From positions 42,116 through 106,115 of the forward strand of contig DATJAK010000022.1 of assembly GCA_035516375.1 (NCBI GenBank): a DNA stretch of 64,000 bases. Reading direction: 5' to 3'. Position numbers and translations under genes: made by a program. This stretch comes from Bryobacteraceae bacterium (GTDB taxonomy: Bacteria; Acidobacteriota; Terriglobia; Bryobacterales; Bryobacteraceae). A model generated the notes under the pieces. The model was given only the letters and a program-made list of their open reading frames with translations, made no database searches and was not told the origin of the DNA. Each line of letters opens with the position of its first letter. The stretch's first letter is position 1. Positions 13,191 to 39,793 of this stretch are shown in pieces.

Positions 13191-13199
13191 GACCGGGGC

Positions 13200-17342: not shown

Positions 17343-17494
17343 AACCCCTCCTCGGTGAAGATATACCACAATCGGGCCAGATGCGACCAACCGAGCAGGG
17401 ACTTGGGAAGAACCGAAAGAGGCGGCGTAGGGTTGTTACGCTCTCGAGAAGTGTTCCGGCCTCGCCGCCTGTGTCGCGACGAGGCCGGAACAGC

Positions 17495-20400
17495 CTAGAA
17501 GGTCAGACGGATTACCGCTTGGCCGGTGCGCGGCCCGGGGCATCCCGCGTTGGTTCCAAATGCGGCCATAAACAGACCCCCTGCTCCGGCCCCTCCCGGT
17601 TGTTCGCATCCTCCGTTGACGTAGTTCACGTAGCCATAACCGCCCGACAGCCCGCCGTTGGGGTTGTTATGCACTGCCGGGGTGGTGGGGTTAGTCCCGC
17701 CGGCTAACGACGGCTCCGAGTAGAACAGGCGGTTGAAGATGTTCTGGAACTCGACGCGGAACTGCAAGTTGGCCCTTTCCTTGATACGGAAATTTCGGCC
17801 GAAGCTCATATTTTCCGCCGGGTACCGCTGCCAACGGCAATTATTGTAGAACGGCGCGGCGGTTCCAAAGTTCCCCCCGCCTGGATCCACCCAAGCGTTG
17901 GTATTCAGTGCCAGCGTCTTGGTCGGATCGAATCCCTTCTGATTCGGATTGATCGCCAGACAAGATTGACCAGCGATGGGGTTAAAGAAGGTATATCCCC
18001 CGCCCCAGAGGGCCGGGTTATTGGACGGTCCGCGATCCAACTGGGTGAGCAGGTTGTTGACGGACGAGGGACTTTGGATCAGCGCACCGTTCTGGTAGCG
18101 CAACAGGGTGGCGATCTGCCAGCCGCCCAATACGTTTTTCAGGAGCCTGCTCTGTCCCACTCGGGGCGTCACGTACTGACCGGAAATCACGAGCAAACTC
18201 GGCGCTGTATTTTGAGACAACTGCTTGTTTTGATCGCGGTTGTAGACGTCGTTGATGAGCGGCGTGCCGGGCGTGAAGTACTGCGTGGAGGCGCTGACGC
18301 CCAGAACGTCGTTCTTGCTGAAGGTATAGGAGCCCTGGATGCTCAAGCCGTGCGAAAACCTCTTCGTTACTTTCACCTGCAGCGCATCGTACCAGGTGTT
18401 GCCCAGCGGTGGACCCAGGAAAGGAGGCACGCCGAGAAACTCCGGAGCCAGCCGGAACACCTGGTTCAAGGGTTGACTCGCAGGGAACCCGGGGTACACG
18501 TTGTTGGGATTGGCGAGATACGGATAGCGCGCAATCACAGCAGGCGAGTTGATGGGCTGCAACAGGAGTGCCCGGTCCGCAGGGTTCTGGATGTTGATGC
18601 CGTCCGCGAGCAGTTGCTGGGGCGTAAGCGCATTATAATCGGTGGCATCGAGCTCCGGCGCCGTAAGCCAAACCCCACGATTGCCCACATAGGTGGCTTC
18701 CGCGACGAGATTCGGCGTAATTTCACGTTGTAAGCCGACACTCCAGTTCAGGATTCGCCCTGGCCGCGAACTCCGGTCTATGTTGATGAAGGGCGAATCC
18801 GGCGGCAATACTCCCCCAGTCGGGACTGGGAATATTCCCTCATCGAAGTTCGGATATTTGAGCGGCGGGTTCCCGAAGGGATTACCCGGCGCGTACGGGT
18901 TGGGACCCAGGGTCATGAACGGGAGGCCATAGGACGGCCCGCTTACGGCGTAGAACACGGTGTCGTTGTAGGACAAGAACGCGTTGTTCGGCGCCGGGGT
19001 GTACAGGAGCCCGGCACCGCCCCTGAGAACCGTCTTGGGGGCAATTTGATACGCGACCCCCAGGCGCGGGCCGAATCCATACGGATAGTTGTGGGAGAAC
19101 TGGCAGTTGCAGCGGCCGCCACCATATCCTTCGAAGAGCGTGGCCCCTGGGGTGCCGGTTTCTGGATTGGTAACGTTAAAAACGGTGTTCGGCATGCGTC
19201 CGTATTGTTCCTTGAGGTAAGTTTGAAAGTCGTAACGCAGGCCGTAATCCACGGTCAGCTTTCTAGTAACCTTCCAACTATCCTGGGCATACAGCCCGAA
19301 GGAGTGATAGCCGAGCTTGGATTGGGTGGGAGGATTAATATTCAGGTTGTCCACCTGCCCCAAAAGGAAGCTGGCATAGCCAAAGCCCGTAAGCCCAGTG
19401 GTGAAAGGACTACTCAAGCCTACCGCCTGCTCATTGGGATTTCCGGTTTCGGTTTGGGAGATGCCGAAATTCCCATTAGCGCGGTTAACGCCGATATCGG
19501 GAAACCCTTCGGCCATGAACTCGCCGCCGAACTTGAAGGTATGGTTGCCCTTGACCCAGGTTACGTAGGTATTGCCGGTGGGCTTTTCATCCCAAAGATT
19601 CTGGAGGAAGCCAGCTGGGCCGAGACCGCCTCCGCCGAAAAGACCCCCGCCTATACCCACACCACCCGAAAAGAAATCGGACAAACCGGAGAAATTGGGG
19701 AAATAATTCTCAACGGGATATCCCGTCAGGCCCAGACTGGCTTCGTTGTAGTTTGGAGAGCCGGACGGAATATAGGTATACAGGTAGCCGATTCCCAAGT
19801 GCAGCAGCAACGTCGGCCGGATGGTCTGATCGTAGTTGACGCGGACCGTCGTCGAGCGGTTGTTCGTTTCCGACGGTTGTATCACGGGCCCCGGTATGCC
19901 GTTCTTGTTCGGATTGAACGTCAGGATGTGCGACACGTACGCGGATATCTTGATGGTCGGGCTGAACGAGTGATCCCCCTTTATGGACCAGTTAGTGGTG
20001 TGCTGATAGTTCTGATATTGCGGCAGATTATAGTTGTTCAGCACGCCGGGGGCGTTCGGCAGCGGAATGAGGTTCTGAAGTGCCATCGCAATCGGATTGA
20101 AGCGGGCTGCCGGAATGATACCGCCCGGAAATGGGTCACGCACAATTGCGCCGCTCGCCAGCGTCTTGGTGCTGTTGGGATCATAAACCTCGTCGTAGAA
20201 CATGGGACGTCCGAGCGCATCCAGAGTCGGGGGACCAAAGAATCCCGCAGAGCTCAGAGCCAGGGGGAATCCGAAGGGATTTGTGGCGGCGGAAAAGTTT
20301 CCACTGCGATAGGCCAGCGTTGGAACAGTTTCCGTCTGGGTGAAAGCTTGGGTTTCCTGATACCGCTCGAAATTGAAGAAGAAGAAAGTCTTGTCCCGGC

Positions 20401-21334
20401 CGTCGTAAATTTTCGGGATTTTGACGGGGCCGCCCAAGGTACCTCCGAAATCGAACTTGCGGTCGGGGTCGCGGATGTGTTCCCCGTCCTTGAGGCTATT
20501 GGTAAGGCCTGCATTGGTGAAGGGCAAGCCCGCATTCAAGGCCTCGTTCACCCAGTACATGTAGGTGCTGCCATGGAGGGTGTTGGTACCCGACTTCATG
20601 GTGTAGTTGAAATAGCCGCCGCCAGCCTGCCCGTACTCCGCCGCGAAATTACTGGTTTGGATGGAGACCTCCTGGATGGCATCCATGCCGCTCTGATTAA
20701 TCTGAGTCTTTTGATTCCACGCGCCATTGGTTGCGTCCTGACCCTCGACACGAATGGCTTCAGTGGAGGCGGGCAACCCGTTGACGCTGATTCCCCCATC
20801 CACTGCGTAGACCACGCCGGGGAGAAGCTGGGATACCGCCAGCGGATCGCGAATGTTACCGAAACCGTTGGAGCCGAAAGAGTTTCCCGCAGTCAGAGCC
20901 AGCACGGGCAGGTTGTCTGCGTCGTCGACTGTTACGTTGTGGCTCAACTCGCCGCTCTCGGTCTTCAGGAGCGGAGCTTCGGCATTGACAGTGACAGTCT
21001 CGGAATTCGCTCCTACTTCCAGGGCGACGTCCTGGCGCACGTCGGTCGCCACGGTGACCACCAGGTTCTCGCGAACAAACTTCTTGAAACCTGCTGAAGT
21101 AACCGTGAGTTCGTATTTGCCCACCGGCACCTGGATCACAAAATTACCCGTGGCGGAGGTGCCGCCCTGGTACACGGTATTGGTGTCAACGTTTTTGACT
21201 TGCACCATCGCGTTCGGCACGACCGCCCCAGCCGGATCGGAAACCGTGCCCGTAATCGTGCCGCCCGCGTTCTGGGCGAACGCAGCGAAGGCGGAAAGCA
21301 TTAAACTGCCGGTAACAACCAACAGTAAGCGCAT
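17495..21334 (-). CDS. TonB-dependent-receptor-like outer-membrane protein with an N-terminal CarboxypepD_reg domain
   Basis: 1279 aa. The signal peptide is followed by TGTVSDPAGAVVPNAMVQVKNVDTNTVYQGGTSATGNFVIQVPVGKYELTVTSAGFK (CarboxypepD_reg), a plug-like region and a long Gly/Asn/Tyr-rich beta-barrel that ends in an aromatic residue (..VIRLTF). Confidence 0.88.
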   Translation of the reverse strand: MRLLLVVTGSLMLSAFAAFAQNAGGTITGTVSDPAGAVVPNAMVQVKNVDTNTVYQGGTSATGNFVIQVPVGKYELTVTSAGFKKFVRENLVVTVATDVRQDVALEVGANSETVTVNAEAPLLKTESGELSHNVTVDDADNLPVLALTAGNSFGSNGFGNIRDPLAVSQLLPGVVYAVDGGISVNGLPASTEAIRVEGQDATNGAWNQKTQINQSGMDAIQEVSIQTSNFAAEYGQAGGGYFNYTMKSGTNTLHGSTYMYWVNEALNAGLPFTNAGLTNSLKDGEHIRDPDRKFDFGGTLGGPVKIPKIYDGRDKTFFFFNFERYQETQAFTQTETVPTLAYRSGNFSAATNPFGFPLALSSAGFFGPPTLDALGRPMFYDEVYDPNSTKTLASGAIVRDPFPGGIIPAARFNPIAMALQNLIPLPNAPGVLNNYNLPQYQNYQHTTNWSIKGDHSFSPTIKISAYVSHILTFNPNKNGIPGPVIQPSETNNRSTTVRVNYDQTIRPTLLLHLGIGYLYTYIPSGSPNYNEASLGLTGYPVENYFPNFSGLSDFFSGGVGIGGGLFGGGGLGPAGFLQNLWDEKPTGNTYVTWVKGNHTFKFGGEFMAEGFPDIGVNRANGNFGISQTETGNPNEQAVGLSSPFTTGLTGFGYASFLLGQVDNLNINPPTQSKLGYHSFGLYAQDSWKVTRKLTVDYGLRYDFQTYLKEQYGRMPNTVFNVTNPETGTPGATLFEGYGGGRCNCQFSHNYPYGFGPRLGVAYQIAPKTVLRGGAGLLYTPAPNNAFLSYNDTVFYAVSGPSYGLPFMTLGPNPYAPGNPFGNPPLKYPNFDEGIFPVPTGGVLPPDSPFINIDRSSRPGRILNWSVGLQREITPNLVAEATYVGNRGVWLTAPELDATDYNALTPQQLLADGINIQNPADRALLLQPINSPAVIARYPYLANPNNVYPGFPASQPLNQVFRLAPEFLGVPPFLGPPLGNTWYDALQVKVTKRFSHGLSIQGSYTFSKNDVLGVSASTQYFTPGTPLINDVYNRDQNKQLSQNTAPSLLVISGQYVTPRVGQSRLLKNVLGGWQIATLLRYQNGALIQSPSSVNNLLTQLDRGPSNNPALWGGGYTFFNPIAGQSCLAINPNQKGFDPTKTLALNTNAWVDPGGGNFGTAAPFYNNCRWQRYPAENMSFGRNFRIKERANLQFRVEFQNIFNRLFYSEPSLAGGTNPTTPAVHNNPNGGLSGGYGYVNYVNGGCEQPGGAGAGGLFMAAFGTNAGCPGPRTGQAVIRLTF

Positions 21335-21513: not shown

Positions 21514-23232
21514 TTACCGGCCAATGCCGCCTGCGAGACAGGGATGCCCGCTTCCCTCGCGCAGAGTCACGACGCGATCCTCACCAATCTGTTTCCAGGA
21601 GTCACACCCGCCCGCCGGCCAGCGGACCTGTATCCGGTCCACTGTGGCCGATTTGCCCAACCCGAAGTGGACTCGTGGGTCGTTGGCTGACAGGTAGCTG
21701 CCATCACCTCTGACCCAGCGCTGGATAGATGTCCCGTCTTTCCGAAACAACTCGACCACGCTGCCGTACCCGGATCGGTTGGAACGTACTCCTTCGAGAC
21801 GAACCTGGATCCAGTGCCCGCGTTCCGGCACCGTATTCAGCAACAGGCGAGCCGGACCGTTATTGTTAGTCACCAGAATGTCGATTCCGCCGTCGTTGTT
21901 GACGTCGCCGAATACCGCCGCGCGGCTAACATCAAGGTGGTCGAAGGCTGGCCCGGCCAAAGCCGTCACATCCTCGAACCCCTTTCCCTTACCCAAATTG
22001 CGCAGCAGCAGATTGCGCTGCCGGTATGGGAAGAGGTCGCCTAGTTGCGTCGCCATGGCGAGTACCGCGCCATTGGCGGCGAACAGGTCCAGCAAGCCGC
22101 GATTTTCCATGTCCAGCAGACCGACTCCGAAGCCGGTGTACGGCAGGGAAAAGTGAAGCAACCCAGTCTGCGCCGTGGAATCGGTGTAATCGCCGCGCGG
22201 CTGCCGCTGGAACAGAGTGAATCCTTCATTGGGAAGATTGGTGATTACCACAGCCTCCCCGCCATCGCCGTACAAGTCGCCGGCCGCTACGCCCATTCCC
22301 GCCCGGGCGCGGCCGTCCGCAGCGAAGGCTAGCCCGCGCATGAGGCCCGCTTCCTTGAATACCCGGCCCTTTTGACTCCCTTCATTCAGCCAAAGATGAT
22401 TGGCGGCGCCATCGTTAGCGACCACGAAGCTCGGCCAGCCATTCGAACCGAAATCGCCTGTCAGGATGCCAAGCCCGGGTCCACGCGCCGCGTTCAGGCC
22501 AACCGCGGAAGTGACGTCTTCAAACCGGCCGTTGCCCAGGTTGCGATAGAGCTGGGTGACGGTCCGGTCGAAGTTCTCGGGCCCGCAATAGTCTCGACGG
22601 CCCTCCGGCCCATAGCAGTTCCTGGGATAGAACTCCAGGTAGTGGACAACCACCAGATCGAGCCAGCCATCGCGATCGTAGTCAATGAACGCGGCGCTGG
22701 TGGACCATCCGGACGATTCCACCCCGGCGGTCTTAGTCACGTCAGTGAAGGTGCCGTTCCCGTTGTTGTGATAGAGAACGTTGTGGCCATAATTCGTTAC
22801 GTACAGATCGGTGTAGCCGTCGTTGTCATAGTCTCCGGCAGCCACACCCATGCCAAAATCACTGTGCCCAACACCCGCCGCTTCGGTGACGTCGGTGAAG
22901 GAGAGTTTTCCGCTTTCGACCAGGTTATTCCGGAACAGCCGGTTCCCGGGCCTCCAGCCTGCCGGCAAAGGGACCAGCGGCTTGCCTTGCGGAATTGCCG
23001 GAGCGCCCTGGACCAGATAAACATCCAGGTCCCCGTCATTGTCATAGTCGATCAGGGCAGCGCCCGATCCCATGATTTCCGGTAAACGAAAGTCTCCCGT
23101 CGCGCCGGAAAACTGCCAGAAGTCGAGCCCGGTCTGCCTGGCGACGTCTGCGAAGAGGGGAGTTGGATGACGAGAAGATCTGCAGGAGAGCGAGAGCGCA
23201 GCAAACAGAAGCAGCACTGCTCCCGATTTCAC
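21514..23232 (-). CDS. CRTAC1-family protein (FG-GAP/VCBS repeats + ASPIC/UnbV domain), lipoprotein-like signal
   Basis: 572 aa with a GTG start. It has repeated DYDNDGDLD / DYDNDGYTD / DYDRDGWLD / DVNNDGGID calcium-binding FG-GAP loops and a C-terminal UnbV-like block (NRSGYGSVVEL...SYLSANDPRVHFGLG...VRWPAG). Confidence 0.88.
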   Translation of the reverse strand: MKSGAVLLLFAALSLSCRSSRHPTPLFADVARQTGLDFWQFSGATGDFRLPEIMGSGAALIDYDNDGDLDVYLVQGAPAIPQGKPLVPLPAGWRPGNRLFRNNLVESGKLSFTDVTEAAGVGHSDFGMGVAAGDYDNDGYTDLYVTNYGHNVLYHNNGNGTFTDVTKTAGVESSGWSTSAAFIDYDRDGWLDLVVVHYLEFYPRNCYGPEGRRDYCGPENFDRTVTQLYRNLGNGRFEDVTSAVGLNAARGPGLGILTGDFGSNGWPSFVVANDGAANHLWLNEGSQKGRVFKEAGLMRGLAFAADGRARAGMGVAAGDLYGDGGEAVVITNLPNEGFTLFQRQPRGDYTDSTAQTGLLHFSLPYTGFGVGLLDMENRGLLDLFAANGAVLAMATQLGDLFPYRQRNLLLRNLGKGKGFEDVTALAGPAFDHLDVSRAAVFGDVNNDGGIDILVTNNNGPARLLLNTVPERGHWIQVRLEGVRSNRSGYGSVVELFRKDGTSIQRWVRGDGSYLSANDPRVHFGLGKSATVDRIQVRWPAGGCDSWKQIGEDRVVTLREGSGHPCLAGGIGR

Positions 23233-23273
23233 GTGATCAGCATTACATGCGCATGATATGCTGTCAACAATTC

Positions 23274-24680
23274 ATGAAACGGGGTGCGGCGTTCACGGTC
23301 ACAACGTTGGCCGCGCTGCTGGCGTGGTCCTGCGCGGGTCCGGTTCCGCCTGTTCCCGCAGTAACGCTGGAAGGCATGGACACCGAGGTGCGCGCCGTTG
23401 TCCAGGCGGCTCATCAGCAAGCGGCGGCGCAACCCTCCAGCGGCCAGGCATCGGGGCGTCTGGGGATGGTGCTGCACGCGCACTCGCTGTATCAACCGGC
23501 GATGCTCTCCTATCAGCGCGCGATTCGTCTGGAGCCGAAGGAGTTCGCCTGGCGATACTACCTGGCGTTGGTGCTTCAGCAAATATCGCAGCCGGACAAG
23601 GCACTGGAGGCCTTTTCGGCCGCGCTGCGCATCCGTCCGGACTACGCTCCCGCAGTTCTGAGGCGTGGGGACCTGCTGTTCCAGATGGGGCGTTTCCAAG
23701 AGAGCGCTGCCGCATATGAATCGGTACTGGCGAAGGATCCAGCTTCGGCTGACGCACTCTACGGTTTGGGGCGGGTACGCTATGCACAGCACGATATGTC
23801 CGCCGCTGAAGATCTCTACCGCCGTGCTTCGCAGGCTTATCCAAAATTCGGCGCCGCCTATTACGGACTAGCCATGGCGGGCCGGAGTCTGGGACATGAC
23901 GCAGACTCGGCGAAGAACTTCGAGCTGTCCAAACGCTTCACGGGTGACCATCCTTCCACTTCGGACCCGCTGCTGAGCCAGATGGGGGCGCTGACCACGG
24001 GCGTTTTCCGCAGGTTCGAGCAAGCCAACTCACTGGCCAAGCAGGGAGACATGGAGGAGGCTGCGCGGCTGAATGAAGAAGTGCTGGCGCGGGATCCGGA
24101 CAACCTCTCCGCGTTACTGAACCTTTTATACCTGGCGCGGTTTCTGAACCGCTTCGATAATCAGGTGGACACCCTCTATTCGCGGGCCCAGCGGATCGAC
24201 CCGCGGGTTCCGCTCATTTACGACTACTACGGTGTCGTCATGGTTCGGGAAGGCAAGTACGAAGCGGCCATGGCCGCGCTCCGGAAAGCCCTCGATCTGC
24301 GGCCGAATTACGCCGAACCGCACAAGTGGATGGGGGAAGTTCTGGAACGGCAGAACCAGATCGCCGGCGCTATCGAGAATTATCAGCTGGCGCTGGCCGC
24401 GGAGCCTTCCGACCGCGCAACCCAAATGAAACTGTGGTGGGACCTCATCATCCAGGGCCGCGGCCGCGAGGCAATTCCACAATTGATCCCGGCGATCCAG
24501 ATTGACGATATGTTTACGCCCATGCGACTGGTCCTGTTGGGCGAGGCTTATCGAACCACGGGCGAATTCGGAAAATCGCGGCAGTATCTGGAGCAAGCGC
24601 GAAGCCGCGTGCGCAACCAGGGTCCGCCGGATCTTTTGGCGCAGATTGAACACGAGTTGAAGGAGCTACCGCAACCTTGA
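23274..24680 (+). CDS. TPR-repeat lipoprotein
   Basis: The start was moved to the ATG at 23274 (MKRGAAFTVTTLAALLAWSCAG, which has a lipobox). TPR units occur throughout. Confidence 0.8.
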   Translation: MKRGAAFTVTTLAALLAWSCAGPVPPVPAVTLEGMDTEVRAVVQAAHQQAAAQPSSGQASGRLGMVLHAHSLYQPAMLSYQRAIRLEPKEFAWRYYLALVLQQISQPDKALEAFSAALRIRPDYAPAVLRRGDLLFQMGRFQESAAAYESVLAKDPASADALYGLGRVRYAQHDMSAAEDLYRRASQAYPKFGAAYYGLAMAGRSLGHDADSAKNFELSKRFTGDHPSTSDPLLSQMGALTTGVFRRFEQANSLAKQGDMEEAARLNEEVLARDPDNLSALLNLLYLARFLNRFDNQVDTLYSRAQRIDPRVPLIYDYYGVVMVREGKYEAAMAALRKALDLRPNYAEPHKWMGEVLERQNQIAGAIENYQLALAAEPSDRATQMKLWWDLIIQGRGREAIPQLIPAIQIDDMFTPMRLVLLGEAYRTTGEFGKSRQYLEQARSRVRNQGPPDLLAQIEHELKELPQP

Positions 24681-27640
24681 GCCGACTGCTGTCGAGCTCC
24701 GCGAGGTGCGCGCACCTGACACTCGCCATGGCATTGCTGATGCTCGTGGCATGCACCCGGCGAATTGACGAAGATCGGTTAAGCGAGCGTCGCAACCTGG
24801 GCACCGCGTTCTACGAGAATCCCACCACCCACCAGGAAGCCGTCCGGGAGTTTCAACAAGCACTGCAACTGGCGCCGGACTCCGCCCGAGAGAAGTTGAA
24901 CTATGCCCTGGCGTTGCTGCGGGCAGGCCGCGAAGAAGAAGGGGTATCGCGGCTTCAGGAGGTGCAGCGCCAGGATCCTTCGCTTCCGCACACCTGGTTC
25001 AATCTGGGAATCTATTACAAACGGCGGGGAGATGTCACTCGTGCCATCACACAATTCGAAGGCATGGTCGCGCGGGCGCCAGAGGAGCCCGTCGCACACT
25101 ATCAGCTGGGTACTCTGTATCGGCAGGTGAAACGCAATGCGGAGGCGCGTACCGAGTTCGAGCGGGCTGCGGCATTGAACCCACTGCTGGCCGCCGCGCG
25201 GTATCAGCTTTACGATCTGAATCGGGTGGCTGGAAATGTCGAGCAAGCCAAGCTCTACCTGGCGGATTTTCAACGCATCCAGCAAGCGCAAAAAGGCTCG
25301 GTGATACCGGAGGACGTCGAGTGGTGCGCTTACGCGGAGATCTATAACCCGCCGGAGTATCGTAACGAAGCGGCGGCGTCGCCGGAACTCACTCTTACCG
25401 ACAAACGGCTGCCCGGCAGTGTCGATCCTAAGACGGCCGGAATGACCCTGATCGACCTGGCGGGTGTCGGGCGAACCGATCTGCTGGTATGGTCGTCGCA
25501 GGGGATTCGAGTGTTTCGCGGCGGACAACAGATCGCCGAAGACATCGGCCTGGACGGATTGACCGGGATTCTGGACGTTGCTCCCGGCGATTTCGACAAC
25601 GACGGCCTGATGGATCTGTGTGTGCTCACCGCCGCCGGCCCGACGCTGTACCGCAACGCTGGAGGCAAATTTGTGCGCCAGCAAGCGCCCCTTCCCGACC
25701 GGCGTTTCGACAAGGCGGTATGGCTCGATTACGATCACGATTACGATCTCGACCTGGTCTTGCTGGGAGAACAACCGGCACTGATGCGCAATCAAGGAAC
25801 CGCCGGCTGGGCTGATCACACGGACGATTTCCCGTTTGTGAAGGGCACGGCCACGAACGCCCAAAAAATGCGCACGGTACCCGATAGCAAAGCGTTCGAT
25901 TTGGCGGTATTTTACCTGGATCGGATGCCGGTACTCTATCGCGATCAGCTTGGCGGCCGCTACACCGCCGAGGCATTTCCGGGAAAGCCCCCGGACGTAA
26001 CACGCACCGAAGTGGATGCCGACTTCGATGCTGACGGCCGGATGGACCGCGCGAGGATCGATCCGGATGGCAGCCTTCACCTTTTGCTCAACCGGAGCGG
26101 AAATGATCGTCGCTGGATCGGTATTCAGCTTAAGGGCGTGCGCAGTCTAAAGCTGGCGCAAGATGCCCTGGTGGAGATCAAGGCCGGCACTCTTTACCGG
26201 CGCCAGTTCTATACGGGGGTCCCGCTGCTGTTTGACGCGGGAAACAATACCACAGTCGACGCGGTTCGCATTACGTGGCCCAATGGGCTGATTCAGAACG
26301 AAATCCGCCAGGCGACGAATCGAACTCATGCTTATGTGGAAGCACAACGACTGTCCGGCTCCTGTCCCATGATCTGGACGTGGAACGGGCATGCGTTCGA
26401 ATTCATCACCGATGTCCTGGGGGTGGCTCCGCTGGGCGCCAGCGATGGTGATGGAAGCTACTTCCCGGTGGATCACGTTGAGTACGTGCAGATTCCCGGC
26501 GGGGCGCTCGAGACCGACCGGAATCATGCCGGTCACTATGAAGTGCGCATCACTGAAGAGCTGAGCGAGGTGTCGTACCTAGACCAGGTCCAGCTTTATG
26601 CGGTGGATCAGCGCGCCGGCACGGAAATCTTCACCAACGAAAAGTTTAAGGGGCCGCCTTATCCGGAATTCCGGCTGTTCGAAGTGGAGCGGCGGATTTA
26701 TCCCGTGGCCGCGCGCGATGACCAAGGCGCGGACGTGTTGCCGCGGTTAATCGCTAAAGACGGCCGGTATCCCGATCAGTTCAGGCGGTCCGAGACCGGT
26801 GTGGCGGAGTTGCACACATTGGAGCTGGATTTCGGAAGCGCGGCGCCATCCGGCAAAGCCATTCTATTACTCAACGGCTGGGTTGATTGGCCCGATGGCA
26901 GCACTTTCCGCAGAGCCTCGCAGGAGTCGGCGGCGGGGTTGGTGATGCCATACCTCGAGGTGCAGGACGGAAGCGGCCAATGGAAGACCGTGAACCAGGA
27001 CATGGGTATGCCCGCCGGCAAGCCCAAGACAATCGTGGTTCCTGTAGAGTTTCTGTCGGCAAGCCGCAAGATCCGGATCGTCACTAACCTATGCGTATAT
27101 TGGGACGAGATTTTCTTGAGTGAGGGGATTTCCAATACGAGCCGGGAGCCAAAGCTGATACCGCTGATTTCGGCCGATTTACACTTTCGGGGATTCTCGG
27201 AATCGCGTATCGACCCGCGCCGCAAACAACCGGACACGTTTTTTTACGGCCAGGTTTCTCCAACCTCTTTCTGGAATCCCACACCGGGCATGTATACAAG
27301 ATACGGCTCGGTGGAGAGCTTGCTCCGCGACGTGGACGACCAGCTCGTGATCATGGGCTCGGGCGACGAAGTTCGGCTCCAGTTCGACGCGGGAACTCTG
27401 GACGAGCTCCGGGCGGGATGGCGCCGCGACTACCTGCTCAAAGTGGACGGCTGGGCTAAGGATCGTGACCCGAATACGGCGTTTTCTTCGAACGTGAAGC
27501 CCCTGCCTTTTCACGGTATGTCACAGTATCCGTATTCGGCCAAAGAGCATTTCCCCAACGACGCCTTGCATGATGAGTATCAACGCACCTACAATACACG
27601 TCCGGCGCTGGTGTTAATCCGGCCGTTGGAGGGACGATGA
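24677..27640 (+). CDS. large TPR + FG-GAP/VCBS + ASPIC/UnbV protein with an uncharacterised ~450-aa C-terminal region
   Basis: 987 aa. It has a lipoprotein-like signal (LLMLVAC), N-terminal TPRs, FG-GAP loops (DFDNDGLMD, DYDHDYDLD, DFDADGRMD) and a UnbV-like block (NDRRWIGIQLKG...RITWPNG). A conserved-looking tail follows, starting SGSCPMIWTWNGHAFEF. The start is either TTG at 24677 (which overlaps the upstream stop) or ATG at 24728. Confidence 0.8.
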   Translation: MSRLLSSSARCAHLTLAMALLMLVACTRRIDEDRLSERRNLGTAFYENPTTHQEAVREFQQALQLAPDSAREKLNYALALLRAGREEEGVSRLQEVQRQDPSLPHTWFNLGIYYKRRGDVTRAITQFEGMVARAPEEPVAHYQLGTLYRQVKRNAEARTEFERAAALNPLLAAARYQLYDLNRVAGNVEQAKLYLADFQRIQQAQKGSVIPEDVEWCAYAEIYNPPEYRNEAAASPELTLTDKRLPGSVDPKTAGMTLIDLAGVGRTDLLVWSSQGIRVFRGGQQIAEDIGLDGLTGILDVAPGDFDNDGLMDLCVLTAAGPTLYRNAGGKFVRQQAPLPDRRFDKAVWLDYDHDYDLDLVLLGEQPALMRNQGTAGWADHTDDFPFVKGTATNAQKMRTVPDSKAFDLAVFYLDRMPVLYRDQLGGRYTAEAFPGKPPDVTRTEVDADFDADGRMDRARIDPDGSLHLLLNRSGNDRRWIGIQLKGVRSLKLAQDALVEIKAGTLYRRQFYTGVPLLFDAGNNTTVDAVRITWPNGLIQNEIRQATNRTHAYVEAQRLSGSCPMIWTWNGHAFEFITDVLGVAPLGASDGDGSYFPVDHVEYVQIPGGALETDRNHAGHYEVRITEELSEVSYLDQVQLYAVDQRAGTEIFTNEKFKGPPYPEFRLFEVERRIYPVAARDDQGADVLPRLIAKDGRYPDQFRRSETGVAELHTLELDFGSAAPSGKAILLLNGWVDWPDGSTFRRASQESAAGLVMPYLEVQDGSGQWKTVNQDMGMPAGKPKTIVVPVEFLSASRKIRIVTNLCVYWDEIFLSEGISNTSREPKLIPLISADLHFRGFSESRIDPRRKQPDTFFYGQVSPTSFWNPTPGMYTRYGSVESLLRDVDDQLVIMGSGDEVRLQFDAGTLDELRAGWRRDYLLKVDGWAKDRDPNTAFSSNVKPLPFHGMSQYPYSAKEHFPNDALHDEYQRTYNTRPALVLIRPLEGR

Positions 27641-30408
27641 CCACATCTAACCGGCGATGGGCGGGCGTGGCTTTGGTGGTGCTGATCCTGAACAGCGGCT
27701 ACCTCGCGGGTTTTCCTCGACCGACCATCTTCTACATGGGCAACGTGCTGCTGCACCTTGTAGTGGGACTGGTCCTGATGGCGGTCGCGATCCTCGTGAG
27801 CAAACGGTATCGCCGCGAAAGCGCAGTATTCCTGGCTGCGGGTCTGCCCGGCCTCTATCTGGCGGTGGGCGGCAATACCTTGGATCATCGTTGGATACTG
27901 TGGCTGCACATTTTGCTGGCTGTCGTGGCAGTGGCAGCGATCGCGTGGCGCGTGGCGCTGGCGCCGTCTGTCCGGGCAGGGCATGGCTTCGCCCTACGAA
28001 CTCTCAGAGCTGCAGTTGCGGTTGCCCTGCTGATCGCGATCGCGTTGCCGGCTTCCAGTTTCCTGTACCGGAGATGGCGTCCGGATGCCCGCGAGCGGAT
28101 CGCCAATCCGGCTGCGCCGCCGCTGTCCATGGATCAAGAAGGCGCCGGAGAGCACTCGCCGTTTGCGCCTTCTTCCGCGCAAACCACTACCGGGAAAATC
28201 ATTCCGTCGAACTTCTTTATGGATTCGGAAGCCTGCGGCGAGTGTCACCGGGATATTTACCAGCAGTGGAAGAGCTCCATGCATCACTTCGCTTCTTTCA
28301 ACAACCAGTTCTACCGGAAATCCATCGAGTACATGCAGGATGTGACGGGCACGCGCTCGAGTAAATGGTGTGCGGGATGCCACGATCACGCCGTTTTCTT
28401 CAATGGCCGTTTCGACCGGCCGATGCGAGAGCAGATCGACACCCCAGAGGCGCAGGCCGGGCTGGGATGCATGTCATGCCACGCCATCGTTCACGTGGCA
28501 AGCACCATGGGCAATGCGGATTTCACAGTTGAGTATCCACCCCTGCACGAAATCGCCTCCAGTCATAACCAGTACCTGCGAGCGATGGACTCCTTTCTCA
28601 CCTACCTGAATCCTCAGCCGCACCGCCAAACCTTCATGAAGCCATACATGCGCCAGGCTGAGTTTTGCGCCGCCTGTCACAAGGTGCACTTGGATGTTCC
28701 GGTGAATGACTACCGTTGGGTGCGCGGTTTTAACGATTACGACAACTGGCAGGCGAGCGGCGTCTCGGGGCAAGGCGCCCGCTCCTTTTACTACCCCGAG
28801 AAGAACATGGCTTGTGCCGATTGCCATATGCCGCTGGTGCCTTCACGCGATCCAGGCAATCATGACGGTAAGGTGCATTCGCACCGCTTCCCCGCCGCCA
28901 ACATGGCCGTGGCAGAGGCCAACCAGGATCAGGCGCAGATGGACGCCACCGAAAAATTCCTGAAATCGGGCTTTATCACGGTGGATATTTTTGCGGTCTC
29001 TCCGGCGGACGAGAGTAAAACGCAGACACGCATGATACGGCGCGGCGATAGTGTACAGGCGAACTCGACGTTCGCCGCCGGCGAAGAAACTGACGTGACG
29101 AGCGCCGGTCTCATTCGGGATGTCGGCAAAGTGACAGCACCGGTGGATGTGGCCGGGGCGGCATTGGCGCCGGGAAGTACAACGCGCGTGGACGTGGTGG
29201 TGCGCACGCGAAAGATCGGCCACTTTTTCCCGGGCGGAACGGTGGACGCGTTCGATGTGTGGCTGGAACTGGAAGGCAGGGATGCGCAAGGGCGGGTCAT
29301 CTTCTGGAGCGGGAATGTGGAAGATCATGGAAAGGGGCCGGTAGAGCCGGGTGCGCACTTCTATCGCTCGTACCAACTCGACGCCGCTGCTAATCCCATT
29401 AACAAGCGCAATGCCTGGCAAGCCCGGAGCCTGCTCTATGTGAGGCTGATCCCGCCAGGAGCTGCCGACGTGGCACACTACCTGCTGAAAGTACCGAAAA
29501 CCGCCCGGGGCCCTATTCATTTGACCGCGCGGCTGAACTATCGGAAGTTCTCGTGGTACTACACGCAATTCGCGTACGCAGGTCAGCCTAAGCCGGGCCA
29601 GGATCCCGCTCTGCTCGCGCGCGATCGCAATGGCTTCGAATATGAGTTCGCGCGCGCCTCGATTCCGGCGAATGTTTCGGGAAAGATCCGCGGCCGGATT
29701 CCCGATGTGCCCATCGTCACGCTGGCCCAATCGAATGTCACGATTCCCTTGGGTGCGCCCGCATGGTCACCCGTGGTGCGCAAGCAGGATCGGGAGCGGT
29801 GGAATGACTGGGGCATCGGGCTCTTGCTGCAGGGCGACCTGAAAGGGGCGGAATACGCCTTTCAGAAAGCCACCGAGGCTGAGCCGGAATATGCCGATGG
29901 ATGGCTGAATGTGGCGCGGGCGCTGATTCAGGAAGGTGAAACCGATCGGGCCAAACCTTATATTGAAAAGGCGCTCGCGATCAACCCGGGGTTGGGACGC
30001 ACCTGGTTCTTCCAGGCCGCCATTCAAAGAGCCGACGGCGACTACGACGCGGCATTGCATTCGCTCGAGGTGGTGCGCGCGAAGTATCCGCGCGACCGCG
30101 TGGTCCTCAACCAGATCGCCCGTATTCTCTTCCTGAAACGCGAGTACGCCGCAGCGGTAGAAGTGCTGAAGCAGGTGTGCGACATCGATCCTGAAGATGT
30201 AACCATGCACTACACGCTGATGTTGTGTTATCGAGGCTTGGGCGACACCGCAAACGCTGCCCGGGAAGAGGCGCTGTTTCGCCGTTTTAAGGCCGACGAA
30301 GCTTCGCAGTCCATCACCGAGCAGCGGCGCATGATCAGCCCGGAAGACAACAATGAGCGGCAGCAGATTCACGATCACGAAAGCGCGGTCAGGAGCGATC
30401 TGCCATGA
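27637..30408 (+). CDS. membrane-anchored pentaheme c-type cytochrome (cytochrome c554-like multiheme region) with C-terminal TPRs
   Basis: 923 aa with ~4 N-terminal TM helices. It has five CxxCH motifs (CGECH, CAGCH, CMSCH, CAACH, CADCH) and a C-terminal TPR block (AEPEYADGWLNVARALIQEG...). Its ATG overlaps the upstream TGA (ATGA). Confidence 0.85.
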   Translation: MTTSNRRWAGVALVVLILNSGYLAGFPRPTIFYMGNVLLHLVVGLVLMAVAILVSKRYRRESAVFLAAGLPGLYLAVGGNTLDHRWILWLHILLAVVAVAAIAWRVALAPSVRAGHGFALRTLRAAVAVALLIAIALPASSFLYRRWRPDARERIANPAAPPLSMDQEGAGEHSPFAPSSAQTTTGKIIPSNFFMDSEACGECHRDIYQQWKSSMHHFASFNNQFYRKSIEYMQDVTGTRSSKWCAGCHDHAVFFNGRFDRPMREQIDTPEAQAGLGCMSCHAIVHVASTMGNADFTVEYPPLHEIASSHNQYLRAMDSFLTYLNPQPHRQTFMKPYMRQAEFCAACHKVHLDVPVNDYRWVRGFNDYDNWQASGVSGQGARSFYYPEKNMACADCHMPLVPSRDPGNHDGKVHSHRFPAANMAVAEANQDQAQMDATEKFLKSGFITVDIFAVSPADESKTQTRMIRRGDSVQANSTFAAGEETDVTSAGLIRDVGKVTAPVDVAGAALAPGSTTRVDVVVRTRKIGHFFPGGTVDAFDVWLELEGRDAQGRVIFWSGNVEDHGKGPVEPGAHFYRSYQLDAAANPINKRNAWQARSLLYVRLIPPGAADVAHYLLKVPKTARGPIHLTARLNYRKFSWYYTQFAYAGQPKPGQDPALLARDRNGFEYEFARASIPANVSGKIRGRIPDVPIVTLAQSNVTIPLGAPAWSPVVRKQDRERWNDWGIGLLLQGDLKGAEYAFQKATEAEPEYADGWLNVARALIQEGETDRAKPYIEKALAINPGLGRTWFFQAAIQRADGDYDAALHSLEVVRAKYPRDRVVLNQIARILFLKREYAAAVEVLKQVCDIDPEDVTMHYTLMLCYRGLGDTANAAREEALFRRFKADEASQSITEQRRMISPEDNNERQQIHDHESAVRSDLP

Positions 30409-32084
30409 ATCGGCGAAGGGGGGCGGTTTGCCTGGTGCTGGCCCTCGCGCCGGTATTGGTGGTGCTCGGCGCCAGCGAACCGTCAGGCAGCGTGGTCTTC
30501 ACTGATATAACCGCGCCGGCAGGCATTCACTTTGTCCACAACGCCGGGCGGACCGGCAAGAAATATCTGCCCGAAACGCTCGGATCCGGCTGCGCGTTTG
30601 TGGACCTTGATGGCGATGGCTGGCCCGACATTCTGCTGCTCAACGGCAAGGATTTCGCACCCCGCGGACGCCGTTCGCTTCCCGCCCTGTATCACAACAA
30701 CCACGACGGCACGTTCACCGACATCACGGCCGGCAGCGGCCTGGATATCGAAATGTACGCGCTCGGAGTCGCGGTTGGGGACTATGACAATGACGGCCGC
30801 GAAGACGTCTATGTGACCGCGCTAGACGGCGATCACCTTTTTCATGGTGAAGGCAACGGAAAGTTTCGCGACGTCACCGAAGCCGCCGGAATTCACAATG
30901 CCAGCTTCGGAGCGAGCGCGGCGTGGCTCGACTACGACCGCGATGGCAAGCTCGATCTATTTGTCGCGAACTACGTTCAGTGGAGCACTAAGAACGATCT
31001 TTGGTGCTCCTTGGACGGCGCTACGAAATCATACTGTACGCCCGAATCGTACAAGGGAACCCGCAGCCGGCTCTTCCACAATCTGGGCGGCGGGCGCTTC
31101 GAAGATGTTGCGGCAGCGGCTGGCGTGGGCGACCCCACCAGCAAATCGCTGGGAGTCACGGTGCTCGATTACAACGGTGATGGCTGGCCCGACATCTTCG
31201 TAGCCAATGACACACAGCCGAACAAACTATATCGCAACTTGAAGAACGGTACTTTCCAGGAAGAGGGCATAGGCGCTGGAGTAGCCTACGGAGAGGATGG
31301 AGTGGCGCGTGGCGCCATGGGGGCCGACGCCGCCGACTACGACGGCAGCGGACGCCCACATTTGTTGGTGGGCAATTTTTCGAATCAGATGCTCGGCCTT
31401 TACCACAACGAAGGCAACGGTCTTTTTGTGGATGAGGCGCCCACCTCGAGCGTGGGCCGCGCCAGCCTGTTGTCGCTCACGTTCGGAGTATTCTTCTTCG
31501 ACTACGACCTGGACGGGCGCCTTGACATCCTGGCCGCCAACGGCCACATTGAGGACGAGATCGGGCGCGTTCAGCCCAAAGTGAGTTATCAAGAGACGCC
31601 GCTACTGTTTCGCAACCTGGGCAATCACAAATTCGAAAACGTCAGCAGCCGGATGGGCGCGGCGTTCGCCCGGCCAATAGTGGCGCGCGGCGCTGCTTAC
31701 GCCGATTTCGATCACGACGGGGACCTGGACGTATTGGTCTCCACCAACAACGGGCCGGCCTGTCTCCTGCGCAACGATGGCGGCAATCGGAACGCGTGGT
31801 TGAGCGTCCGGCTGGCAGGAAGCAAATCCAATCGCGACGGCATCGGCGCAGTCGTGCGCGTGGCGAGTGCTTCCGGAAAGCAGTGGAACATGGTTCGCAG
31901 CGGATCCAGTTATTGTTCCCAGAGCGATCTGAGCCTGGTTTTCGGGCTTGGCCGGGATGCCACCGCGGTGGTGGAAGTGGAGTGGCCGAGCGGTACCCGG
32001 CAGCGCTTCGAGAACATCAGAGCAAATCAGCGGATCACGATCCACGAAGCCGGTGGCGTGATTCCGAACGGAGGGAGGTCGTGA
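30405..32084 (+). CDS. CRTAC1-family protein (FG-GAP repeats + ASPIC/UnbV)
   Basis: 559 aa with a signal peptide. It has the loops DLDGDGWPD, DYDNDGRED, DYDRDGKLD, DYNGDGWPD, DYDLDGRLD and DFDHDGDLD, plus the UnbV block NRDGIGAVVRV...SYCSQSDLSLVFGLG...VEWPSG. It is a paralogue of 21514-23232. Confidence 0.9.
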   Translation: MNRRRGAVCLVLALAPVLVVLGASEPSGSVVFTDITAPAGIHFVHNAGRTGKKYLPETLGSGCAFVDLDGDGWPDILLLNGKDFAPRGRRSLPALYHNNHDGTFTDITAGSGLDIEMYALGVAVGDYDNDGREDVYVTALDGDHLFHGEGNGKFRDVTEAAGIHNASFGASAAWLDYDRDGKLDLFVANYVQWSTKNDLWCSLDGATKSYCTPESYKGTRSRLFHNLGGGRFEDVAAAAGVGDPTSKSLGVTVLDYNGDGWPDIFVANDTQPNKLYRNLKNGTFQEEGIGAGVAYGEDGVARGAMGADAADYDGSGRPHLLVGNFSNQMLGLYHNEGNGLFVDEAPTSSVGRASLLSLTFGVFFFDYDLDGRLDILAANGHIEDEIGRVQPKVSYQETPLLFRNLGNHKFENVSSRMGAAFARPIVARGAAYADFDHDGDLDVLVSTNNGPACLLRNDGGNRNAWLSVRLAGSKSNRDGIGAVVRVASASGKQWNMVRSGSSYCSQSDLSLVFGLGRDATAVVEVEWPSGTRQRFENIRANQRITIHEAGGVIPNGGRS

Positions 32085-32677
32085 AACCGATGTTTCTTCC
32101 CGGAGTGGAAAACAATCCACAACCCGGGCCTTACCGTGAAGTCCTGCAGCCCATGCGGGCGGCTGGCAAGGAATATCCACAGATTTGGCATCTGTTTGCT
32201 TTTCGCCCGCAGGCCACGGAGCATCTGGCGAGGTTCACTCAAGAGGTGATGCGCGGACCGGCGCCGATTGCTCCCGGCATTCGCGAATTGATCGCGGCCT
32301 ACACGTCGTACCGCAACGATTGCCCATTTTGACTGCACGCGCATGCCGCGGTCGCGGCAGAGTTGCTGGGCAGTGAAGAGTTGGTGTGGAGTGTGATTCG
32401 GGACCTGGAGAATTCAGCACTCCCGGAGAAAGAGAAGGCCCTTTTCCGCTTCATTGATAAGGTGAACGGCGATTCTCCTCGCATTGCGCCTTCCGACATG
32501 CAACCGTTGTACGCCGTGGGTTGGGATGATGAGGCCATCTACTTTGCGATTACAGTCTGCGCCTTGTTCAATTTCTATAATCGTTGGATCGATGCGACCG
32601 GTGTGCACGCGCTATCGCCCGAGGCTCATCGGGAAGGGGGCAAGCGCACGGCACAGCACGGCTATGTTCGAAAGTGA
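32081..32677 (+). CDS. AhpD/carboxymuconolactone-decarboxylase-family peroxidase-related protein with an in-frame TGA at 32330-32332 (candidate selenocysteine, CxxU)
   Basis: Two same-frame track ORFs (ending at 32332 and starting at 32363) join across the TGA to give ...SYRNDCPF[TGA]LHAHAAVAAELLGSEEL.... This matches the C-x-x-C-x-x-x-H AhpD motif. The start is GTG at 32081 (overlapping the upstream TGA, with GGAGGGAGG upstream) or ATG at 32090. Confidence 0.65.
32333..32373 (+). promoter_or_regulatory. candidate bacterial SECIS hairpin
   Basis: The upper stem pairs U32344-C32349 with G32354-A32359 (6 bp) and closes a GGUC loop at 32350-32353. A lower stem with bulges is possible (C33/G68, G35/C66, C36/G65, A37/U64). 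The loop G-U lies at nt 22-23 counted from the U of UGA. Confidence 0.55.
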
Positions 32678-36012: not shown

Positions 36013-37425
36013 ATGCTTTCGCAGGAAACGGCAGCCCAGATCCCACAAATTCAGTTTTGGCCCATTGAGCGACTGGTCTTCTACGCTCGCAATCCCCGCA
36101 AGAACGATGCCGCGGTCGACCGCATGTGCAGCAGCATCCGGGAGTTCGGCTTTAAGTGCCCAGTGCTGGCTCGCAGCGATGGAACCGTGGTGGACGGCCA
36201 CCTTAGAATTAAGGCAGCGCGCCAGTTGGGATCGTGGCCCGGTGGCGACACCACCGCAATCCCAGTGATCCTCTGCGATGAGTGGACGCCCGCGCACGTG
36301 AAGGCATTCCGCCTCCTGGTGAACAGATCCGGAACCTGGGCGGATTGGGATCTGGAACTGCTCGGCCCAGAGCTCGCGGACTTGAAAGACCTCGCCTATG
36401 ACGTGTCGTTAACAGGTTTCGACGCACGAGAGATCGACGCTCTCCTCGCATCCCCGGACGGCGACGAGAAAGCCAACGCCACGCCGCCACTGCCGGAGGT
36501 CGCGGTGACTCAGCCAGAAGATCTGTGGTGCTGTGGTCCACATCGCGTCTTGTGTAGCGATGCGACGCAAGAAAGCGCCACATCGCGGCTCTTTGCACGA
36601 ACGGTCCCGTTCCTGATGGTGACTGACCAACCATATGGCGTGAGCGTGGATCCAACCTGGCGGGAGGAGGCGGGTCTCAACCCCCGAACGGTGCAGGGCG
36701 GCAAGGTCGCTAACGACGACCGGGTGGATTGGTCACAGGCCTGGCAGCTATTCCCTGGGGACGTCGCTTATGTCTGGCACGCGGGGATCTATGCCGGAGA
36801 AGTTGCCGCTTCGCTGTTCGGCAGCGGCTTCCAGATTCGGGCACAAATCATTTGGCGAAAACAACACTTCGTAATCAGCCGCGGCGCTTACCATTGGCAG
36901 CACGAACCTTGCTGGTATGCGGTGCGCAAAGGGAGCTCCGCTCACTGGCGTGGGGATCGGACACAATCGACAGTGTGGGACGTTAGCAATCTGGGCTCTT
37001 TCGGCGGTGACCGGAGCGAGGAGAAGACGGGCCACGGCACGCAGAAGCCGGTCGAGTTGATGCGCTGCCCGATCCTGAATCATACGGAGCGTGGTGATGC
37101 GGTGTATGACCCCTTCTTGGGATCGGGTACGTGCATGGCTGCTGCCGAGTTAACCGGTCGCCTGTGTTATGGGATGGACATCGACCCGCGGTACGTTGAT
37201 GTCGCGGTACTTCGCTGGCAAGCCCTAACGGGGAAGGAGGCAACGCTGGCTGATGGGCCTTACGCCGGCGCCACGTTCGAGCACGTGAAAGAAGGGCGAC
37301 TTCTGGCTGCCGAAGATGCGATTAAGGATGATTGCGAGCGGCTACTGGACGAGCGGGCATGCGAGCAGGTGGCCGATCAGCCCGTCACGCATCATGCACC
37401 CAATGAAGGCACGGGGGGCGCCTAG
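36013..37425 (+). CDS. ParB-like nuclease domain fused to a DNA methyltransferase (beta-class N6A/N4C type)
   Basis: 470 aa. The N-terminal ParB/Srx-like block (YARNPRKNDAAVDRMCSSIREFGF..PVLA..DGTVVDGHLR) is followed by the catalytic DQPYG (DPPY-like) motif and then the SAM-binding DPFLGSGT motif. Confidence 0.85.
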   Translation: MLSQETAAQIPQIQFWPIERLVFYARNPRKNDAAVDRMCSSIREFGFKCPVLARSDGTVVDGHLRIKAARQLGSWPGGDTTAIPVILCDEWTPAHVKAFRLLVNRSGTWADWDLELLGPELADLKDLAYDVSLTGFDAREIDALLASPDGDEKANATPPLPEVAVTQPEDLWCCGPHRVLCSDATQESATSRLFARTVPFLMVTDQPYGVSVDPTWREEAGLNPRTVQGGKVANDDRVDWSQAWQLFPGDVAYVWHAGIYAGEVAASLFGSGFQIRAQIIWRKQHFVISRGAYHWQHEPCWYAVRKGSSAHWRGDRTQSTVWDVSNLGSFGGDRSEEKTGHGTQKPVELMRCPILNHTERGDAVYDPFLGSGTCMAAAELTGRLCYGMDIDPRYVDVAVLRWQALTGKEATLADGPYAGATFEHVKEGRLLAAEDAIKDDCERLLDERACEQVADQPVTHHAPNEGTGGA

Positions 37426-37886: not shown

Positions 37887-37889
37887 CGT

Positions 37890-39455: not shown

Positions 39456-39736
39456 CAAGCTCGCGCGACCCCAGTCAGTCGAGCTTCCTTGCATGGCCTG
39501 ACTTCCTAACCTTGTTTCGTGGCTCGGCCCAACCGGAGTCTCTCTGACTGACCCGAGATAACTGGCCGGTTAATGCCACTCTCCGGTTAGGTGCGTCAGA
39601 CGTCAGTTGACGTGATGCGGACATATCAGGATCTATCGTAGATTGCGGCCTTTTCAGGGCCGAACTCAAACCAACCTAACCCACTGATTCCACGAGACGA
39701 CCCAACGAGAAAACGCCGATTTTATCCCTATTTGTT

Positions 39737-39765: not shown

Positions 39766-39793
39766 CCACCCCCGGGAGAGCGCAGCCCGCATC

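Follow-up and report, generated by a model that had tools for sequence, protein, structure and literature searches.

A membrane five-haem cytochrome gene paired with a CRTAC1-like gene in Acidobacteriota

Cytochrome c552, Geobacter ExtKL/Gsu2801 and MccSep make up one group of proteins in which a five-haem cap sits on an immunoglobulin (Ig)-like stem (PMC11976967; PMC13510729). Here we compare this group and other described systems with a locus in a 64,000-nucleotide stretch of DNA from a Bryobacteraceae bacterium (contig DATJAK010000022.1 of assembly GCA_035516375.1, positions 42,116 to 106,115; hereafter the window), where the gene of a predicted inner-membrane five-haem cytochrome with a tetratricopeptide repeat (TPR) domain (G3, 923 aa, 27637-30408, plus strand) overlaps that of a secreted CRTAC1-like protein (G4, 559 aa, 30405-32084, plus strand). 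The pair stands in a chain of five overlapping plus-strand genes, G1 to G5 (23274-32677), among them the gene of a 987-aa lipoprotein with a long C-terminal tail (G2) and that of a selenoprotein (G5). A preliminary description had given the coordinates, junctions and domain calls of this chain, all of which we confirm, and had proposed that the five genes form a single envelope redox module. Judged by the gene neighbourhoods of related genomes, the region is instead a mosaic around a conserved G3-G4 core, with a G2-type gene as its frequent third member.

As in the PHC group (5ZE8, ExtKL, Gsu2801 and MccSep 9WT8), the N-terminal helical region of G3 bears five CXXCH motifs at comparable spacing, and a putative beta-sandwich comes after it; we place G3 beside that group on the strength of five CXXCH motifs within one domain and detectable homology to 5ZE8. 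The known members are soluble, whereas G3 adds a predicted five-helix anchor and a 200-aa TPR domain; the sequence similarity is marginal, and G3 is no equivalog of ExtKL or MccSep. Membership of the NapC/NirT/CymA family was considered and rejected for G3, which has no Pfam match to Cytochrom_NNT, carries five haems and has about five predicted transmembrane (TM) helices; it may work in a similar way.

The described counterpart of G4, and of a second CRTAC1-like protein of the window (CRTa), is human CRTAC1 (9ETN), with which both share a seven-repeat Ca-binding FG-GAP propeller and an UnbV_ASPIC domain; the Ca-binding DxDxDG propeller joined to UnbV_ASPIC that marks the CRTAC1/ASPIC-UnbV family is present in each. 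The EGF-like region at the C terminus of the animal protein is missing from bacterial CRTAC1 proteins, and we know of no function for any bacterial member of the family. What distinguishes G4 within it is the near-obligate pairing of its gene with that of a cytochrome. A CRTAC1 FG-GAP gene also lies between haem-bearing propeller genes, some with cytochrome c554 domains, in hydrazine-synthase-like clusters found outside the anammox bacteria, in Planctomycetota, Syntrophobacter and the Bryobacteraceae genus Paludibaculum (PMC12758564). Unlike the window, those clusters encode haem proteins resembling subunits alpha and beta-gamma of hydrazine synthase, and they have neither a TM-anchored five-haem TPR protein nor a tail protein.

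Multihaem cytochromes are further accompanied by six- to seven-bladed propeller lipoproteins, discoidin and TPR proteins in the extracellular electron transfer (EET) islands of D. ferrophilus IS5, Ca. Tenderia (Uet) and Ca. Desulfofervidus, where a role in stabilising cytochrome complexes has been ascribed to the propellers (PMC8322314; bioRxiv 10.1101/2022.05.06.490989). These islands differ from the window in having NHL-type rather than FG-GAP propellers, extracellular cytochromes with many more haems, and a porin or other outer-membrane component. Assignment to the porin-cytochrome conduits of Mtr/Pcc type was likewise rejected: G3 is the sole haem protein of the module, and the outer-membrane barrel of the window is of TonB-receptor type, a barrel gene lying within 10 kb of the cytochrome at just 11 of 80 loci. 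Finally, G5 shares with the AhpD/CMD selenoproteins (TIGR01926; AhpD-related NCBIfam models) the CxxU(C)xxxH motif and a conserved UGA with a selenocysteine insertion sequence (SECIS), and differs from them only by its lineage-specific position after a CRTAC1 gene.

Literature searches on UnbV/ASPIC with cytochromes, on CRTAC1 with multihaem proteins, on UnbV with SusD and on multihaem proteins with TPR, propellers and Acidobacteria found no account of the module, in agreement with the earlier statement that it was uncharacterised. We consider three things to be new: the architecture of G3, in which TM, five-haem, sandwich and TPR parts from known families are built into one protein; the near-obligate coupling between G3 and a single CRTAC1-like orthologue; and how large a family lies behind the label 'TPR protein'. 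Indeed, because databases name the G3 family only 'tetratricopeptide repeat protein', its haems are invisible to surveys that go by name.

Architecture of the five-haem protein G3

By hydropathy, G3 begins with four to five hydrophobic segments (aa 8-145); we favour about five TM helices because the haems would come to lie in the periplasm only with an odd number. Within this membrane domain (aa 1-148, nt 27637-28080), residues N19, N35, H40, G44 and H91 are invariant among 75 homologues, and H40 and H91 sit in two separate TM helices, through which the domain may bind haem b or quinol. The five CXXCH motifs follow at aa 200, 245, 278, 344 and 393 (nt 28234-28827) in a region with a Pfam match to Cytochrome_C554; all ten of their Cys and all five of their His are invariant among 47 homologues. 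A predicted beta-sandwich 'mid' domain (approximately nt 29047-29781) and a C-terminal TPR domain (approximately nt 29782-30405, matching Pfam TPR) complete the protein. Searches of the TM and mid domains against Pfam at permissive E-values returned nothing meaningful.

In a profile search of the PDB, the c552 of T. tepidum (5ZE8) matches G3 across haems 1-3 (E=3.7e-6), with a second stretch at haem 5 that is weak and not significant alone. It is the sole solved relative of the haem domain by sequence profile, cytochrome c554 and MccSep giving marginal E-values, and it is also the top Foldseek match (E=1e-4, prob 1.00) of a query model with a pLDDT of 41. That AlphaFold2 (AF2) model, which covers the periplasmic part and draws on 47 close homologues, is of low overall quality and we base no residue-level conclusions on it; its beta strands at approximately aa 510-700 reach pLDDT 60-88, and the remaining Foldseek matches are Ig-like sandwiches. 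In species genomes the family is represented by at least 572 matching stretches, and in the protein-database search 7,913 of 8,000 scored candidates were at E<=1e-10. A G3-like protein with 26% identity, 718 aa and four CXXCH motifs is encoded in an Ignavibacteriales metagenome-assembled genome (L260, 3215-5371), with the gene of a tail protein approximately 6 kb downstream of it. The family of the cytochrome thus extends outside Acidobacteriota.

The G3-G4 pair and its neighbourhood

G4 carries seven FG-GAP_3 stretches (1.5e-54), an UnbV_ASPIC domain (6e-19), six Dx[DN]x[DN]G motifs and a signal peptide, and it matches the human CRTAC1 structure 9ETN at E=3.5e-24. We followed its gene and those around it in three censuses of 80 species-genome loci each, centred on G3 (loci L004-L083), on G5 (L087-L166) and on G2 (compared as L167-L246). 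A G4 orthologue lies directly downstream of the cytochrome gene at 72 of the 76 loci with enough flanking sequence, in genomes that span Bryobacterales, Vicinamibacterales, Thermoanaerobaculia and Holophagales; these orthologues are 63-82% identical, as against 25-55% for paralogues. A 4-nt overlapping start is available in 46/73 G3-G4 pairs, and in the other measurable pairs, three excepted, the first possible start falls within -41 to +18 nt. Given this recurrence among orthologous pairs from across the phylum, we regard the junction itself as a conserved feature. After G4 and G2, the commonest neighbours of the cytochrome are an amidase (16/80) and a histidine kinase (10/80). At one locus (L031, 9992-14461) a single open reading frame (ORF) covers both the cytochrome and a CRTAC1-like protein, either as a real fusion or through a long-read indel error.

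The proposed coupling of UnbV proteins to haems thus stands for G3 and G4, where it is strongly conserved, and fails for the five genes as one conserved unit. Conservation of the neighbourhood had been named beforehand as decisive, and it was found for G3-G4 and often for G2; a G1-like gene of more than 40% identity was found beside the cytochrome at none of 80 loci, and G5 adjoins it at 3/80 and 8/80 in the G3- and G5-centred censuses.

Each of the four junctions in the window is a 4-nt start/stop overlap, namely TTGA for G1-G2 (24677-24680), ATGA for G2-G3 (27637-27640), ATGA for G3-G4 (30405-30408) and GTGA for G4-G5 (32081-32084), and a Shine-Dalgarno-like GGAG or GGAGG lies 6-12 nt 5' of every start. 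The G3-G4 overlap is recurrent across the phylum, while the G1-G2 and G4-G5 junctions are limited to close relatives. The two unusual start codons are supported by comparison of sequences. Specifically, TTG 24677 is the sole G2 start that gives a signal peptide ahead of the lipobox LVAC, whose Cys is nearly invariant among 50 homologues; the next in-frame start, ATG 24728, lies just eight residues ahead of that Cys, and on a 99%-identical metagenome contig the G2 gene call has the same overlapping start. This start, on which the first account had made the G1-G2 junction depend, accordingly holds. The GTG of G5 aligns with ATG in 74/80 orthologues and with GTG in 3. As read from the sequence, overlaps of this kind point to operon membership and to possible translational coupling; the fixed stoichiometry that had been deduced from them is not shown by a 4-nt overlap.

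G2 (24677-27640, plus strand) consists of a TPR region (aa 1-230), a reduced FG-GAP propeller (FG-GAP_3) with a weak UnbV match (aa 231-545) and the tail (aa 546-987, nt 26312-27637). The tail contains the motif SCPxxWxWNG, starting at aa 562 inside the string SGSCPMIW, whose first residue is aa 560 (nt 26354). It had been described as matching nothing recognisable: across its approximately 440 aa there is indeed no Pfam match, also at permissive E-values, and no PDB sequence match, yet it is not rare: clustering at 50% identity gives at least 3,513 clusters of proteins that contain it, usually at the C terminus of proteins of 1,100-1,250 aa that are ordered TPR, FG-GAP, UnbV and tail, and with a conserved start SCPxLYxWNG. 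Its AF2 model is all-beta (pLDDT 64) and gives weak Foldseek matches to the jelly rolls of carbohydrate-binding module CBM32, discoidin and Eph-LBD (E of approximately 1e-3, TMq of at most 0.21); at this model quality they are too weak, and we assign the tail to no family. Three representative proteins of 2,200-2,550 aa (P0318, P0320 and P0382) carry 14-15 CXXCH motifs together with two tail copies, a natural fusion of tail and multihaem parts, and P0318 additionally has a purple-acid-phosphatase N domain. A tail-bearing G2-type gene is found directly upstream of the cytochrome at 41 of 77 loci and, reciprocally, the cytochrome directly downstream of G2 homologues at 33 of approximately 71 loci with enough flank; many of the closest G2 relatives adjoin barrel genes and have no cytochrome beside them. 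We also queried with a Planctomycetota-type relative for a link of tail and cytochrome beyond Acidobacteriota, and rejected such a link at 2 of 36 loci.

Upstream of G2 lies G1 (23274-24680, plus strand), a 468-aa TPR lipoprotein by its Pfam TPR matches and its lipobox AWSC. As had been reported, the CRTAC1 paralogue CRTa (572 aa, 21514-23232, minus strand) is divergent from it at a gap of 41 nt, and the 1279-aa TonB-dependent-receptor-like barrel protein OMP (17495-21334, minus strand; CarboxypepD_reg and OMP_b-brl_4, Pfam 2.1e-148) lies beyond. CRTa (FG-GAP_3 1.4e-34, UnbV_ASPIC 4e-17, four Dx[DN]x[DN]G motifs) is approximately 36% identical to G4-type proteins; its gene is the first of a minus-strand CRTAC1-OMP-TPR unit, which ends with the gene of a 358-aa protein of Pfam TPR families (16314-17390, minus strand). 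G1-like genes adjoin CRTa-like genes at loci L001-L003, L084 and L086, and CRTa orthologues of 61-77% identity have G1-like and OMP genes as neighbours in L003, L084 and L086. Hence G1, CRTa, the barrel and the 358-aa TPR gene probably constitute a second unit, typical of Bryobacteraceae, that became joined to the cytochrome pair in the lineage of the window.

The order seen in the window, with OMP and CRTa divergent from G1-G2-G3-G4, recurs in a 99% relative (L084), partly in an 84% relative (L085) and also in L086, where the cytochrome shares just 58% identity and where an amidase gene, overlapping the CRTAC1 gene by 4 nt, closes the operon. When identity to the window is plotted for G2 versus G3, the loci fall into two groups, one at approximately 60% for G2 and 70% for G3 and the other at approximately 75% and 58%; the G2 of the window belongs with the second group, its G3 and G4 with the first. 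This suggests recombination between two paralogous G2-G3-G4 lineages of Bryobacterales, with unequal evolutionary rates as the alternative.

Possible roles of the pair

On balance we lean towards the view that G3, G4 and, where present, G2 form an electron-transfer complex that is anchored in the inner membrane and docks propeller partners. In this scheme G3 would be held in the membrane by approximately five helices, in which H40 and H91 are a candidate haem b ligand pair or quinol site; its five-haem c-type domain, of the c552/ExtKL/MccSep 'PHC' kind, would project into the periplasm, followed by the beta-sandwich and a TPR arm. G3 would exchange electrons with the quinone pool and relay them through its five haems, in a direction about which we can only conjecture. 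The TPR arm might dock the Ca-binding FG-GAP propeller of G4, itself possibly made by translational coupling from the G3 mRNA, and might also dock G2, whose propeller and CBM-like tail would bind a presumed substrate or surface.

In favour of this scheme we count the pairing of G3 with G4, with no other neighbour common apart from G2, the reciprocal counts for G2, the fusion of the tail to 14-15-haem cytochromes, the invariant haem motifs and TM histidines of G3, its resemblance to 5ZE8, the export signals of G1, G2 and G4, and the precedents described above for propeller genes within multihaem clusters (PMC12758564; PMC8322314; bioRxiv 10.1101/2022.05.06.490989). Several observations weigh against this reading. 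To our knowledge, FG-GAP propellers have no redox activity. G2-type proteins are missing from about half of the cytochrome loci, and for the tail proteins of Planctomycetota, Blastocatellia and other groups a G3-like gene was near at 2 of 36 loci; given how rare such neighbours are in other phyla, G2 may act independently of the cytochrome. The fold match of G3 rests on a poor model (pLDDT 41) together with a modest sequence E-value, and a scan for promoter and terminator consensus sequences across 16-34.6 kb gave counts at shuffle level, which makes it uninformative on internal promoters.

A more specific possibility, which we hold tentatively and think rather unlikely, is that G3-G4, with or without G2, is an unrecognised quinone-linked periplasmic oxidoreductase of Acidobacteriota, by analogy with the pairs of pyrroloquinoline-quinone (PQQ) dehydrogenase and cytochrome and with hydrazine synthase. 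The G4 propeller would then be the substrate site and G3 would wire it to the respiratory chain.

The locus might alternatively serve the capture and uptake of a polymer, with the TPR lipoproteins, the Ca-propellers with CBM-like tails and the TonB-type barrel importing a glycan or other polymer and the cytochrome supplying or removing electrons for its processing. Integrin-like FG-GAP propellers can act as lectins, which counts in favour of this idea, as do the resemblance of the tail to the carbohydrate-binding jelly rolls of CBM32 and discoidin (at a weak E of approximately 1e-3), the grouping of CRTa, OMP and a TPR protein in a minus-strand unit, and the barrel genes that often adjoin G2 relatives lacking a cytochrome. 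We nevertheless judge it unlikely: no carbohydrate-active enzyme is conserved nearby in the G3-centred loci, the tail model is moderate and its TM-scores low, and the invariant pair consists of the cytochrome and G4, which has no tail.

That the genes build a conduit for EET or metal reduction, in which electrons from the cytochrome would reach an acceptor outside the cell, for example Fe(III) or humics, by way of the propeller and TPR lipoproteins and the neighbouring barrel, seems to us quite improbable. The PHC member ExtKL belongs to an EET cluster of Geobacter (PMC11976967), beta-propeller lipoproteins, a discoidin-domain protein and TPR proteins occur in other EET islands (PMC8322314), and in the window a large barrel and two lipoproteins are adjacent; furthermore, Bryobacterales in peat express other multihaem clusters (bioRxiv 10.64898/2026.05.27.727921). 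However, those published clusters differ in having 8-13 haems and a porin (bioRxiv 10.64898/2026.05.27.727921), whereas the present module encodes no extracellular or periplasmic partner with 8-13 haems. The barrel, besides being within 10 kb at 11/80 loci only, is of TonB-dependent-receptor type and is not a porin-cytochrome sheath.

The selenoprotein gene G5 and the extent of the module

G5 (32081-32677, plus strand) encodes a 198-aa protein with the motif C-P-F-U-L-H-A-H, its selenocysteine (Sec) codon being the in-frame TGA at 32330-32332. With Sec read as Cys, the protein scores 86.1 bits against the TIGR01926 cutoff of 81.8 and 26.6 against the Pfam CMD cutoff of 23. A TGA stands at the same codon in 80/80 orthologues, within the motif DCPF*L[HKE][AS]HA. 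A SECIS-like hairpin, GCCGC-GGUC-GCGGC (32345-32358, plus strand), begins 12 nt beyond the end of the UGA (position 16 counted from the U). Its folding energy alone is not significant (z=-0.9); its closing pair is G..C in 37 of the 80 orthologues, A..U in 43 and mixed in none, through synonymous third-position changes, and two loci have a second compensatory pair. On this comparative evidence G5 is a genuine, ordinary AhpD-like selenoprotein.

It does not follow that G5 belongs with the cytochrome. The preliminary description took the five genes for one extracytoplasmic module of fixed stoichiometry, in which the haems and the AhpD-like thiol/selenol protein act jointly, for instance in handling peroxide. 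In its favour are the 4-nt overlaps at all four junctions of the window and the finding of a G3-like gene within 8 kb of G5 at 8/80 Bryobacterales loci, where a single-copy gene placed at random in 7 Mb of genome would be expected in approximately 0.2%. Those eight loci, however, vary in order and orientation; in the G3-centred census an AhpD-like gene was near the cytochrome at 3/80 loci (within 8-10 kb), and a CRTAC1 gene is directly upstream of a G5 orthologue at 2/80, the usual neighbours of G5 being a major facilitator superfamily (MFS) transporter (32/80) and an outer-membrane barrel (24/80). Export signals were recognised in G1, G2 and G4 and none in G5; without a signal peptide, G5 is therefore cytoplasmic and no physical partner for periplasmic proteins, which removes it as the envelope partner it had been taken for. 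The 3' slot that it occupies in the window is filled in L086 and L003 by an amidase gene. No peroxidase-type dihaem domain was found, nor any other pointer to peroxide handling, and G1 adjoins none of the 80 cytochrome loci. The five-gene reading is thus already largely refuted by the census and we think it very improbable; G5 is better viewed, on gene order and the absent signal peptide, as a putative cytoplasmic passenger, the last gene of a putative operon in the lineage of the window, and not a conserved member of the module. The amidase genes just mentioned carry an amidase signature (GGSSGG) and lie at 17250-18650 of L086 and 18015-19496 of L003, each overlapping the end of a CRTAC1 gene by 4 nt.

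The five-haem domain of G3 is distantly related to the c552/ExtKL/MccSep group, and MccSep is a five-haem polysulfide reductase whose active site requires a Sec as well as a Cys that ligates haem 2 (PMC13510729). A polysulfide or sulfur reductase of that type is scarcely credible here, since among 47 homologues G3 has no invariant Cys outside its five CXXCH motifs and the gene has no in-frame UGA; the NCBIfam ExtKL model reaches 19 bits against a cutoff of 250, and the MccSep match covers the first haem motif only (E=0.13). We consequently rejected MccSep-like catalysis for G3 on the absence of the active-site Cys and Sec. The idea that there is no functional link at all, adjacency being a by-product of the large expansions of CRTAC1, TPR and barrel paralogues in Bryobacteraceae, draws on the high expansion of these families in Solibacter-type genomes (PMC3174227) and fairly describes G1, OMP and G5, which like G2 assort fairly independently, but as an account of the whole it has next to no likelihood, being refuted for G3-G4 by the same orthologue (63-82%) downstream of the cytochrome in 72/76 genomes of several orders, mostly with an overlapping start.

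The surrounding sequence holds some further features. At 11490-14642 the window has two further cytochrome genes: the first encodes a fusion of a multihaem c domain with the membrane domain of a cytochrome b (Ni_hydr_CYTB), and after it comes the gene of a NapC/NirT-like multihaem protein. Downstream of the operon, the approximately 1.8 kb up to a cytochrome P450 gene (32678-34499) contain short overlapping ORFs only, and neither of the two that we tested there had a Pfam match. A prophage-like stretch with a DNA methylase, a large terminase and a reverse transcriptase follows at 36013-41359, and the GC content falls to 0.52 at 50-52 kb. Scans of the whole window for tRNA genes and with Rfam were empty.

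Taken as a hypothesis about five genes, the envelope module has been narrowed, with G1 and the AhpD-like selenoprotein now outside it. Little is known of respiration and of the envelope in Acidobacteriota, which are among the most abundant bacteria in soil and in which the G3-G4 unit is widespread. In G3 we see the first consistent genomic partner that we could find for the bacterial ASPIC/UnbV family; were the quinone-linked oxidoreductase reading to prove true, a biochemical role would for the first time be assigned to the CRTAC1/ASPIC-UnbV family in bacteria.

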